Shown here one piece after another: positions 13,183 to 60,208 of a DNA stretch of 64,000 nucleotides (positions are counted from its first letter, which is position 1; each line of letters opens with the position of its first letter). The translations under genes were made by a program, and so were the position numbers. Source of the stretch: an uncultured Methanosarcinales archaeon (GTDB lineage: Archaea; Nanobdellota; Nanobdellia; Woesearchaeales; CAZYIM01). The notes below the pieces were generated by a model. That model was not told the origin of the DNA, made no database searches, and saw nothing but the letters and a program-made list of their open reading frames with translations. The DNA is taken from assembly GCA_964647565.1 (NCBI GenBank), contig CAZYIM010000001.1:40328-104327 (forward strand). Direction: 5' to 3'.

Positions 13183-14349
13183 ATGCCGGTTCACAGAATA
13201 CATTTCATGCATGATTTCTTTGTAAAGAAGGAGATGAACCTGATCTATCTGTCTTTTTTTATCATAACATTTGCAGAGAGCATGATCGGCATATTCATAC
13301 CAGTCTATCTCTACAAGCTCAACTACCCAATTACAGAGATCATCCTGTTCTACCTGTTGATCAGCCTGTTTTTTGTGGCATTCTCAATATTGGGAGCAAA
13401 GACAGTCTCAAAGGTCGGGGTTAAGCATGCTATCCTGTTTTCAACGCCATTCCTGATTTTATTCTATGTATTGATGAACTATATCCAATATTCAAGATTG
13501 CTTTTTTTTCTATTGCCCTTATTGATATCATTGAACATGATTTGCTTTAACTACGGATTCCACCTCAACTTCATCCTGCATTCAAACCAGAAGAAAAGAG
13601 GCAAGGAGCTCTCTACTCTGGGCATACTATCCATATTTTCTACGGCTCTTGGCCCTCTGTTTGCAGGACTGATAATTGCGTTCTTCGGCTTCACAGCGCT
13701 TTTTGTGGCAGGCGCAATCATATTAGTGGCGGGAGTATTGCCACTCTTCCTGACAGATGAACACTATGAGAAGACAGGAATAGATCCTAAAAAGACCATC
13801 AATTATATTACAGACAGGCGAAACTGGCACAAGTTCTTTAGCTTCACTGGCTATGCCATTGAGGAGATCATCAGCAGGATTCTATGGCCCATCTTCTTAA
13901 TCATCCTTCTTTTGACAACAGAGAAGGTTGGCTTTATCGTGACGCTTACCTTCATCATATCAATCTTTGTCTATTATATAATAGGCAAGTTTACAGACAA
14001 GTACGACAGGGGTAACCTGTTGAAGATCGGATCAATCTTGTATTTCTTTGGCTGGCTGGGCAGGATATTTGCCACCTCAGCTCTAAAGGTGGTGATTGTA
14101 GACTCCTACAAGAACCTCTCCCAAAAAGTGCTTCATGTCCCATGGTCCGCCAAGTCATATGACATAGCAGCCAGGGAGAACTATTACATGTTCATTGTTG
14201 CCAGGGAGATCATATTCAACCTAGCAAGAGTGATTGTATTGCCATTCATAATCATGATTTTCTATATTGGCTTCTATCCATTCATAACATCCTTTTTAGT
14301 CGCAGCATTGTTCACTTTGCTTTATCCGATGTTGAATAAAACAAAATGA
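13183..14349 (+). CDS. MFS transporter
   Basis: About 12 TM segments; IGKFTDKYDR loop motif. Confidence 0.8.
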   Translation: MPVHRIHFMHDFFVKKEMNLIYLSFFIITFAESMIGIFIPVYLYKLNYPITEIILFYLLISLFFVAFSILGAKTVSKVGVKHAILFSTPFLILFYVLMNYIQYSRLLFFLLPLLISLNMICFNYGFHLNFILHSNQKKRGKELSTLGILSIFSTALGPLFAGLIIAFFGFTALFVAGAIILVAGVLPLFLTDEHYEKTGIDPKKTINYITDRRNWHKFFSFTGYAIEEIISRILWPIFLIILLLTTEKVGFIVTLTFIISIFVYYIIGKFTDKYDRGNLLKIGSILYFFGWLGRIFATSALKVVIVDSYKNLSQKVLHVPWSAKSYDIAARENYYMFIVAREIIFNLARVIVLPFIIMIFYIGFYPFITSFLVAALFTLLYPMLNKTK

Positions 14350-14978
14350 AATATAAACTGATAAGTTTGGACATGGATGGAGTCATCTTTAAGAAAGACA
14401 ACTTCTGGATGAATCTGCATAAAGCCTTGGGCACCTATGAACAGGGCAAGGAGCTGACCAGGAAATACCTAAGAGAAGACTATGCTAAACTAGTTGAAGA
14501 GGTTGTCAATAAGCTTTGGAAGGGAAAAAGTGCTGATGCATATTTTGAGCTTGTGAAGACAAGTAAATATAATCCAGGTGTCAAAGAAGCTGTAGCAAGT
14601 ATGAAAAAAATGGGTTTTGAGCTCTGCATCATAACCTCAGGTCCCAGAGGATTGCTGGATAGGGCTAAAATAGAACTGGGTATTGAAGATGGGGTTTCAA
14701 ATGATCTGGTCATCAAGGATAATTTAATCACAGGAGAATTCATATGCCCGATTGCTGCAGACAACAAGCGTCCGATCCTGGCAGAGATCTGCCTGAAACA
14801 TGGAATCAGTGAAAAAGAGGTCATTGCCATCGGCAATGGATACAATGATGTCCCAAAGTTTGAGATGGCCGGCTTTTCCATTGCTTTTAATTCTCATTGC
14901 AAGGAGCTTAACAAGATAGCAGATGTTGTTGTAGAAGGCAATGATATGAGAGATGTTCTGGAAGTACTACCGAAATGA
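14346..14978 (+). CDS. HAD-superfamily phosphatase (phosphoserine phosphatase-like)
   Basis: LDMDGVIF, ITSG, K, AIGNGYNDV motifs. Confidence 0.8.
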   Translation: MKYKLISLDMDGVIFKKDNFWMNLHKALGTYEQGKELTRKYLREDYAKLVEEVVNKLWKGKSADAYFELVKTSKYNPGVKEAVASMKKMGFELCIITSGPRGLLDRAKIELGIEDGVSNDLVIKDNLITGEFICPIAADNKRPILAEICLKHGISEKEVIAIGNGYNDVPKFEMAGFSIAFNSHCKELNKIADVVVEGNDMRDVLEVLPK

Positions 14979-14979
14979 T

Positions 14980-15097
14980 AATTAAGTTACGTTCTACTTC
15001 GCTTTCTTCGGAAAAAAACTCAGAAAACTACGTCGCGCCATGCCACGAATGCCTCGCATTCAGTGGCTATCACGGCAGCGACGGCCGTAATTTAATT
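14980..15097. ncRNA. Candidate structured RNA/ssDNA element, copy 1 (homologous to 60044-60208)
   Basis: Closing stem AATTAAGTTACG/CGTAATTTAATT. Core CTACTTCGCT...AACTACGTCGCGCC...ACGGC-AGCGACGGC. Hairpin GCCAC-GAATGC-CTC-GCATTC-A-GTGGC. Confidence 0.6.
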
Positions 15098-15115: not shown

Positions 15116-15658
15116 TTACTCTTCATCCTTGACATAGTGATGGTCAAAGTTCTCGTCAGCAATAGGTGCAAAAGGATCCATATGCAACAAGTTTAGGGCT
15201 GCCTTGGCGCCTGTTTTCAATTGGTGTGCATGACCCGATGCAACCTGCTTTACGCCTTGTTTAAGTTTGTTGGCGACCTTGTCCAGAACAAGAGTGCATT
15301 CTCCTTCAAGATTGATAAAGGTCTCGACCACATTGTTATGGAAATGATGGGAAGTTACACAATTGGGCGGGATTACCTGCACCAAAATCCCCTTCTTCAC
15401 ATGCATGCCAGGATATCTTGCTTGTGATCCTGCAGAGCACTGGAATTTCTCCTCAGAGAGTTCCCTATAATATAACCTATGGTCATGTCCATTGAATTTA
15501 GGAAGAAGGATGGATTTCATGTGCTTGTCAAGAAAGGTCTTTTCCTTGGTCCGAACAGAAATAAAGTCTACGTTATGCTGCATATCAAGAAATTCATCCT
15601 CTGTCAAGTCCCTAGTTATAAGTGTGAACCTGTCCTTGGGAACCAATCTGACCCTCAT
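15116..15658 (-). CDS. Cupin domain protein
   Basis: C-terminal cupin motifs TSHHFHNNVVETF..LEG and VASGHAHQL. Confidence 0.75.
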   Translation of the reverse strand: MRVRLVPKDRFTLITRDLTEDEFLDMQHNVDFISVRTKEKTFLDKHMKSILLPKFNGHDHRLYYRELSEEKFQCSAGSQARYPGMHVKKGILVQVIPPNCVTSHHFHNNVVETFINLEGECTLVLDKVANKLKQGVKQVASGHAHQLKTGAKAALNLLHMDPFAPIADENFDHHYVKDEE

Positions 15659-60043: not shown

Positions 60044-60208
60044 GATGCAGAAAAATCCTACTCCGCTCAACTCGCTTTGCTCGTTGAACTACGCCGCACC
60101 AGTTGCGTTTACTTTGTAAACGACAATCCTAACGGCACTGAGAAATTACTTCGTAATTTCTGGTGTCTCGTTCGTATACTCGGAGACAGCAACGGCTTTT
60201 TCTGCATC
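60044..60208. ncRNA. Candidate structured RNA/ssDNA element, copy 2 (homologous to 14980-15097)
   Basis: Perfect 12-bp closing stem GATGCAGAAAAA/TTTTTCTGCATC. Core CTACTCCGCT...AACTACGCCGCACC...ACGGC...AGCAACGGC. Four internal hairpins. Confidence 0.65.

Follow-up and report, generated by a model that had tools for sequence, protein, structure and literature searches.

The 118-nt element at 14980-15097, which lies in the spacer between two convergent genes of the window (the whole stretch of 64,000 nucleotides that was analysed), is a genuine member of a large, dispersed, non-coding superfamily of three-armed (Y-shaped) repeats in Woesearchaeota/Nanoarchaeota-type DPANN archaea. The reading that we favour, with a probability of about 0.6, is that it is a copy of this Y-shaped repeat whose relatives are in part IS5-type MITEs, and that the copy itself has neither TIR nor target duplication (TSD) and has kept its fold.

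Fold and composition of the element

The closing stem P1 is formed by AATTAAGTTACG (14980-14991) and CGTAATTTAATT (15086-15097), here as below written for the + strand; it comprises 12 pairs including one G-U, exactly as originally predicted, and the T-A pair 14979/15098 adds a 13th. P1 is followed by the junction strand TT-CTACTT-CGCT (TTCTACTTCGCT, 14992-15003), which aligns to the positions CCUACUC of the family model. CCUACUY is the most conserved motif of the family, its CT and A being invariant or nearly so across 30 genomes. The arm hpY (15004-15025), predicted to fold on both strands, has the stem TTCT/AGAA and a loop containing A7, which on the - strand is a U7 tract (15011-15017); relatives carry a mini-hairpin, a long two-part hairpin or large modules at this position. 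In P3 the 5' strand CGTCGC-GCC (15031-15039) pairs with 15074-15076 and 15078-15083 of the 3' strand GGC-A-GCGACG (15074-15083), leaving A15077 as the bulged A of the family, and P3 is closed by the arm hpZ (15040-15073) with GCCAC/GTGGC, GAATGC/GCATTC, a bulged A and the loop CTC. All motif strings named in the original prediction are present: its first hairpin spans 15003-15026, AACTACGTCGCGCC is found at 15026-15039, the GCCAC..GTGGC hairpin at 15042-15067, ACGGC at 15072-15076 and AGCGACGGC at 15077-15085.

All helices of the element are intact, with about 36 pairs, no mismatch and one G-U. The predicted folding energy is -41.5 kcal/mol for the + strand (z -4.46, 1 of 200 dinucleotide shuffles as good) and -44.9 kcal/mol for the - strand (z -4.65, none of 200 as good). 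The GC content is 0.46, or 0.52 for the core without the closing stem, so that the claim of a much more GC-rich element holds against the mean intergenic DNA of the contig (0.31) but is overstated with respect to the coding flanks (0.42-0.44).

The fold does not correspond to any RNA class in the collections searched. Rfam 15, which includes hammerhead, twister and other self-cleaving classes, gave no match in the window at the gathering score, only chance-level matches at E <=10 around the two window copies described below, and nothing at E <=1 in four rod-form loci; a tRNA/tmRNA scan of the window was negative as well. Inspection of both strands by eye revealed neither a bulge-helix-bulge splice motif, since both bulges lie on the same strand, nor a K-turn, tandem G·A being absent, nor a hammerhead or twister core.

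The locus

As predicted, the element lies 3' of both neighbouring genes. The upstream neighbour, a HAD-family hydrolase (14346-14978, + strand), has a TGA stop that ends 1 nt before the element, and the stop codon of the convergent neighbour, a weak cupin-like protein (15116-15658, - strand), is 18 nt away from it. Homologues of the HAD protein align up to residue 208 of 210, indicating that the end of this gene is native, and with stops only 1 and 18 nt away there is no room for lost outer ends of the element. The stable structure, together with the U7 tract on the - strand about 100 nt past the stop of the cupin-like gene, may end or stabilise the convergent transcripts, and a local side effect as a terminator is possible.

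We searched metagenome contigs for an orthologous empty site using the neighbouring proteins as queries and found no syntenic HAD/cupin locus: the HAD homologues had 43-69% identity and none was syntenic, and the cupin-like protein retrieved nothing. In contigs of the same population the locus sequence is identical, and the metatranscriptomes of studies that hold this organism contained no sequence from it. One HAD homologue with 64% identity (L027:1136-1455, metagenome contig Ga0114934_10042952) has its frame split by an insert of ~320 nt made up of many short hairpins, which could be a mobile element or an intervening sequence in a protein gene of a related archaeon.

A three-way junction in two circular permutations

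The conserved part of the family is a three-way junction composed of CCUACUY, the variable arm hpY, P3 (CGYC-NN-GCC/GGC-A-NN-GACG with its bulged A) and a third helix, present either as the hairpin hpX or as the open closing stem P1. Two circular permutations of this one junction are found. The rod form has the order GGC-A-CAGACG, hpX, CCUACUC, hpY and CGCCUG-GCC, enclosed by long pairing arms with A- and T-runs, so that P3 is extended by the arms, which open to the flanking DNA. In the window-type order, to which 14980-15097 belongs, P3 is closed by hpZ and the element opens to its flanks at P1, the equivalent of the hpX helix of the rod form.

The architecture GGC-A-NN-GACG is common to 32 copies from 30 genomes. 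Among these copies, compensatory changes on both sides affect 13 of 18 pairs, over 84 cells; the observed values were not attained in any of 500 shuffles and lay far above those of slid controls, indicating that the structure has been selected. Two compensatory double changes separate P3 of 14980-15097 itself from the commonest family form, CGCCTG/CAGACG. The hpZ of this copy is similar to those of two paralogs in this genome (C35:3453-3559 and C28:29777-29882) and to those in four other genomes (G140, G377, G209 and G102), to which the core is 66-81% identical over aligned columns, and the GAATGC/GCATTC part of hpZ has its match in the terminal arms of this genome's rod-form copies. Sequence conservation in the family sits in the junction strands and in helix-closing pairs, away from the ends. 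Variable terminal arms around a conserved interior junction are the reverse of what is found in a classical MITE and are typical of a functional structured RNA.

Covariance model R1 detected 31 rod-form copies in this genome and the rod form in 30 of 401 genomes of the order, usually with several copies per genome. The window-type order has about 8-10 copies in this genome and, with model R2, matches in 80 of the 401 genomes, some of which are parts of rod-form copies. A genome-wide count by covariance model, proposed along with the original prediction, thus yielded dozens of relatives, so further family members exist. All records that contained a pattern of the core independent of the permutation bore the label Woesearchaeota, Nanoarchaeota, Nanoarchaeia or Pacearchaeota, apart from doubtfully labelled MAGs and a small number of short contigs with a bacterial label.

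Larger elements of 220-280 nt (G000:C2:77739-78018 and G000:C11:14903-15125) have the same rod-form shell (GGCACAGACG, hpX, CTACYC ... CGCCTGGCC, with the arms ATGAATGCTTATTTT), in which a module of 90-150 nt replaces hpY. Two genomes of one genus differ at one and the same intergenic spacer (L045:1449-1620 and G172:C7:664199-664432, L097), which holds one rod-form copy in one genome and two different, inverted copies with GC-rich arms in the other, suggesting an insertion hot spot or rapid turnover. This same-genus comparison of a rod-form locus (G075 against G172) thus revealed different family members at the spacer and no clean empty site.

Recognition of the window element by a permuted rod-form model

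The relation between the two permutations was probed with model R2, which was built from 30 rod-form copies of 29 other genomes by cutting them at the hpX loop and joining the arm stubs; neither sequences of this genome nor natural window-type copies went into it. With filters off, its best match in the 64-kb window was 14988-15089 on the + strand, at full length and with 31.9 bits (E 4.7e-7). Two rod-form copies stand in tandem about 50 nt apart at G000:C48:2311-2499, and R2 scores 39 bits across their junction; such a tandem pair is one way in which the window-type order could arise.

The second copy in the window (60044-60208, + strand) has the same arm order as 14980-15097 and carries two extra hairpins inside the 3' strand of P3. 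It folds better than shuffles (z about -5.4), lies 17 nt upstream of a start codon and has a closing stem, GATGCAGAAAAA, that resembles the inner part of an IS5-type TIR (..TGTAGAAAAA). Significance of the alignment between 14980-15097 and 60044-60208, on which the original prediction had staked the kinship of the two, proved borderline against dinucleotide shuffles (z 1.4-2.4), and as plain pairwise alignment is marginal their relationship was judged by the family models. R2 placed the 60-kb copy third in the window, with 10.5 bits (E 2.1), and as modelled 14980-15097 is nearer the family consensus than the 60-kb copy. The collinear pattern CTACTYCGCT-N8-38-RCTACGYC has five matches in the 2.68-Mb genome, where about 0.006 are expected by chance in our composition-based estimate, and none for a reversed control. 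All five are family members, and the three beyond the window copies revealed the wider family; only 2 of 100 other genomes of the order contain the pattern. The extra hairpins are thus indeed present at 60 kb and absent at 14980-15097, yet the latter is not the minimal core that had been proposed, the smallest version in the family being the junction of about 52 nt.

The probable folded strand and the genomic context

The non-Watson-Crick combinations at paired positions are strongly asymmetric. Read on the CCUACUY strand, the 32 copies from 30 genomes contain 25 A·C cells and one G·U, and in this genome the same count gives 31 A·C and 9 G·U. A·C on this strand is G·U on its complement, which indicates that the complementary strand folds; in the clearest case, a pair in GACG/CGYC, 17 copies have A-U and 15 have A·C. 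Judging from these mismatches, the folded strand is probably the complement of CCUACUY, which for 14980-15097 is the - strand of the window, as RNA or single-stranded DNA (ssDNA), and the + strand for which the structure was first described is probably not the one that folds.

The orientation of the copies relative to neighbouring genes is random, and more than 60 copies are distributed over co-directional, divergent and convergent spacers. From this it follows that the fold is not a cis-regulatory signal of the host in the transcript of a neighbouring gene. The argument against a simple riboswitch, first drawn from the two window copies, is therefore borne out by a family that occurs in every orientation and intergenic context.

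Mobile relatives and an IS5-family partner

Like MITEs, the element is short (118 nt, the usual bound being about 300 bp) and non-coding, and it has many dispersed copies. True MITEs are found among the window-type copies, in many of which the closing stem is a GGC-type TIR of 17-18 bp that resembles those of IS5/IS903 and has a 9-bp target duplication at its flanks. Six near-identical copies in genome G029 share the TIR GGCTCTGTCCTAAATCTC and have perfect 9-bp TSDs, TIR and TSD are present in a copy of genome G072 (L009), and five further loci (L067, L068, L075, L077 and L079) have GGC-type TIRs with TSDs matching at 8-9 of 9 positions. Within this genome, a transposon-type TIR is found in the relatives on C40, C8 and C28 and at C35:3439-3567 and C25:26036-26156, and TSDs are seen at C40:2679-2867 (TCATTCTAC), C8:38019-38207 (GAAAACCTG) and C28:29765 (7 of 9 positions).

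A candidate partner resides in the same genome, namely a single copy of an IS5-family element of about 890 bp at G000:C3 (L088:1131-2020) with a 17-bp TIR, GGTTGTGTAGAAAAAGT, and a perfect 9-bp duplication, GTTTTTTAT. Its transposase matches PF01609 and NF033579 and is the sole DDE_Tnp_1 match in the genome, and its TIR is close to the GGBTTTGTAGAAAA TIRs of the MITEs described above. A published census (PMC11602168) counts a Woesearchaea genome among the most MITE-dense archaea.

Other MITEs were encountered alongside. A second IS903-like family in G029 (L018-L021, on C45, C9 and C23) has the TIR GGCTCTGTTGCAAATCTC, perfect 9-bp duplications and a GC-rich interior, and the arm ACCCCGCAGGGGGCATCCCCC is common to it and the family of 14980-15097. 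In this genome, at least five copies (G000:C5:74971-75113, G000:C8:7605-7748 and others) belong to yet another MITE family, about 140 bp long, in which IS903-like ends, GGCTTTGTCCAAAAA ... TTCTGGACAGAGCC, flank an interior that is unrelated.

Transposon ends at 14980-15097 and in TSD-less relatives

The hallmarks of the IS903 group (9-bp duplication, GGC TIR and DDE_Tnp_1) are all found in the relatives and the IS at C3, and none of them is visible at 14980-15097. Its P1 arm occurs nowhere else in the genome and matches the IS903-like TIR of the nearest paralogs, C35 and C28, at only 6 of 18 positions; in comparison with the TIRs of C35/C28, G029, L009 and L067 the matches number 6-11 of 18, at or near chance. 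No 9-bp TSD was detected with several choices of boundary, the flanks CCGAAATGA and ATGCAATCT being different. The element has thus lost or never had transposon ends and is probably immobile. Of the proposal of a dispersed or mobile element, dispersal of the family and relatives with TIRs and 9-bp TSDs have been confirmed, but 14980-15097 itself exhibits neither TIR nor TSD. Its 12-bp closing stem is nevertheless perfect despite about 20-30% divergence from its relatives, and its intact helices are unlike the prediction of simple MITE decay.

In genome G140 copies (L186-L191, on C5, C31, C6, C15 and C59) with 97%-identical cores have unrelated closing stems, each of them well paired, and no TSD. 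Their 3-nt hpZ loop varies (TTT, TCT and GTT) and all 30 nucleotides of the hpZ stem are identical. No TSD was found in rod-form copies either, where even the outermost stem pairs covary. The G140 copies and the TSD-less rods imply that part of the family spreads or persists otherwise than by IS5-type cut-and-paste.

Interpretation and rival explanations

In the model that we favour, TIR-bearing copies are mobilised in trans by IS5-family transposases, and 14980-15097 would most likely be an immobilised derivative; alternatively, it may have arrived by a second insertion route that leaves no TSD, as in G140 and the rod form. In both cases the fold has been retained. The fold would act on the - strand as RNA or, less likely, as ssDNA, and would serve the propagation or persistence of the element itself rather than the regulation of neighbouring genes. 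Several observations fit a MITE poorly: the strand-specific wobbles are not accounted for by a cut-and-paste transposase of the DDE type, the copy in question has no IS5-type TIR or 9-bp TSD and yet a perfect closing stem despite its divergence, the G140 cores carry unrelated paired stems, the TSD-less rods covary up to their outermost pairs, and throughout the family the arms vary around a conserved interior junction. The main rival reading is a free-standing functional small RNA, i.e. a multi-copy RNA gene family of Woesearchaeales in which carriage by MITEs is secondary and 14980-15097 would be a functional paralog, with pairing as the sole demand on its closing stem; a trans-acting RNA, as the original prediction had suggested, is conceivable. 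Conservation of the junction while all helices covary, the strand-specific wobbles, the wholly different closing stems on 97%-identical G140 cores with a varying hpZ loop on a fixed stem, the intact helices of 14980-15097 at about 20-30% divergence and the tolerance of circular permutation, as in some ribozyme classes, all argue for such an RNA. We nevertheless regard it as rather unlikely in view of the patchy distribution and high copy number (30-80 of the 401 genomes, with as many as 31 copies in one), the clear TIRs and TSDs on many members, and the failure to see a conserved promoter or an Rfam match. Equally tentative is the proposal that the junction itself, on the strand complementary to CCUACUY, is a functional RNA or ssDNA module, enzyme-recruiting or catalytic, which tolerates permutation, is spread by IS5-type MITEs, TSD-less rods and TIR-less copies, and gains a closing stem peculiar to each copy when it inserts; this gain is most clearly suggested by the unrelated, perfectly paired stems on the G140 cores.

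The strand-specific mismatches and the conserved bulged bases would also suit a folded ssDNA site captured by IS5-type MITEs and recognised by a recombinase that needs no TIR or TSD. The enzyme could be of the Y1/HUH type, by analogy with REP/RAYT or IS200/IS605, or a tyrosine recombinase like that acting on integron attC. Such a site would account for the absent TSDs in the rod form and several window-type copies, circular permutation would fit a circular intermediate, and the complementary strand has two GTAG motifs, as REPs do; since neither an array organisation nor attC R/L boxes were seen by eye, and the arms pair mutually instead of forming separate end hairpins, we consider this improbable. 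Still less can be said for an ordinary bidirectional terminator or 3'-end stabiliser whose likeness to the 60-kb element is due to chance. The stops 1 nt and 18 nt away, U7 on the - strand and small terminator-like hairpins inside the element, found in a consensus scan, agree with it, but the family model recognises the element with E 4.7e-7 and dozens of relatives lie mostly at non-convergent sites, some of them between divergent genes, making chance likeness very improbable; a terminator without other family members, which the original prediction had named as an outcome against itself, is rejected on the same grounds. Least probable of all is a riboswitch or another ligand-sensing cis-regulator, for which a structured, GC-rich intergenic fold and the position of the 60-kb copy 17 nt upstream of a start codon could be quoted: 14980-15097 lies 3' of both its neighbours, the context is random across more than 60 copies, and neither an Rfam match nor a link to one gene class was found.

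Implications and comparison with known systems

If the favoured reading as a Y-shaped repeat with partly MITE-type relatives is true, DPANN archaea with small genomes carry a widespread mini-transposon family in which an internal three-way junction is conserved and not the ends. This junction would be kept by compensatory change on one strand and in two circular permutations, which is unusual for MITEs and suggests that the element depends in some phase of its life on a folded single strand of RNA or DNA. For annotation, such copies resemble new riboswitches or small RNAs and need to be identified as repeats. The consequence for the locus is modest, namely a U-tract and a stable structure in the spacer of a convergent gene pair.

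Among intergenic repeats, Correia elements of Neisseria, ERIC, RUP/BOX and the Sulfolobus MITEs SM1-SM4 are, as far as is known, simple rods, and such structured repeats can provide terminators or processing sites to the transcripts of nearby genes. The family of 14980-15097 is like them in being intergenic and multi-copy with long terminal pairing, but has no sequence similarity to them, with Rfam silent, and to our knowledge none of them has been reported to have a conserved three-way junction, strand-specific wobbles or circular permutation. REP/REPIN elements (RAYT, Y1 HUH) share a strand-specific fold, the absence of TSDs, here in part of the family, and GTAG on the folded strand; unlike their single imperfect palindrome, however, the fold described here is three-armed, and many members have DDE-type TIRs and TSDs. 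Inspection of the arms by eye showed none of the R''/R' boxes (RYYYAAC/GTTRRRY) of integron attC sites, and the copies are scattered in both orientations. Permuted self-cleaving ribozymes (hammerhead types I-III and twister) provide a parallel for one junction core with its open end in different helices, but their conserved core sequences are absent from the family, which has no Rfam match to them at any threshold.

The IS5 MITEs of the IS903 group have in common with the family that they are small, non-coding and dispersed; many relatives of 14980-15097 have the corresponding GGC TIRs of 17-18 bp and 9-bp TSDs, and the same genome contains an IS5-family element that has a 9-bp duplication and a TIR of similar sequence. 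The copy at 14980-15097 departs from these MITEs in having neither that TIR nor a duplication, and the family as a whole differs from them by conserving an internal three-way junction in two permutations, one of which, the rod form, lacks a duplication altogether.
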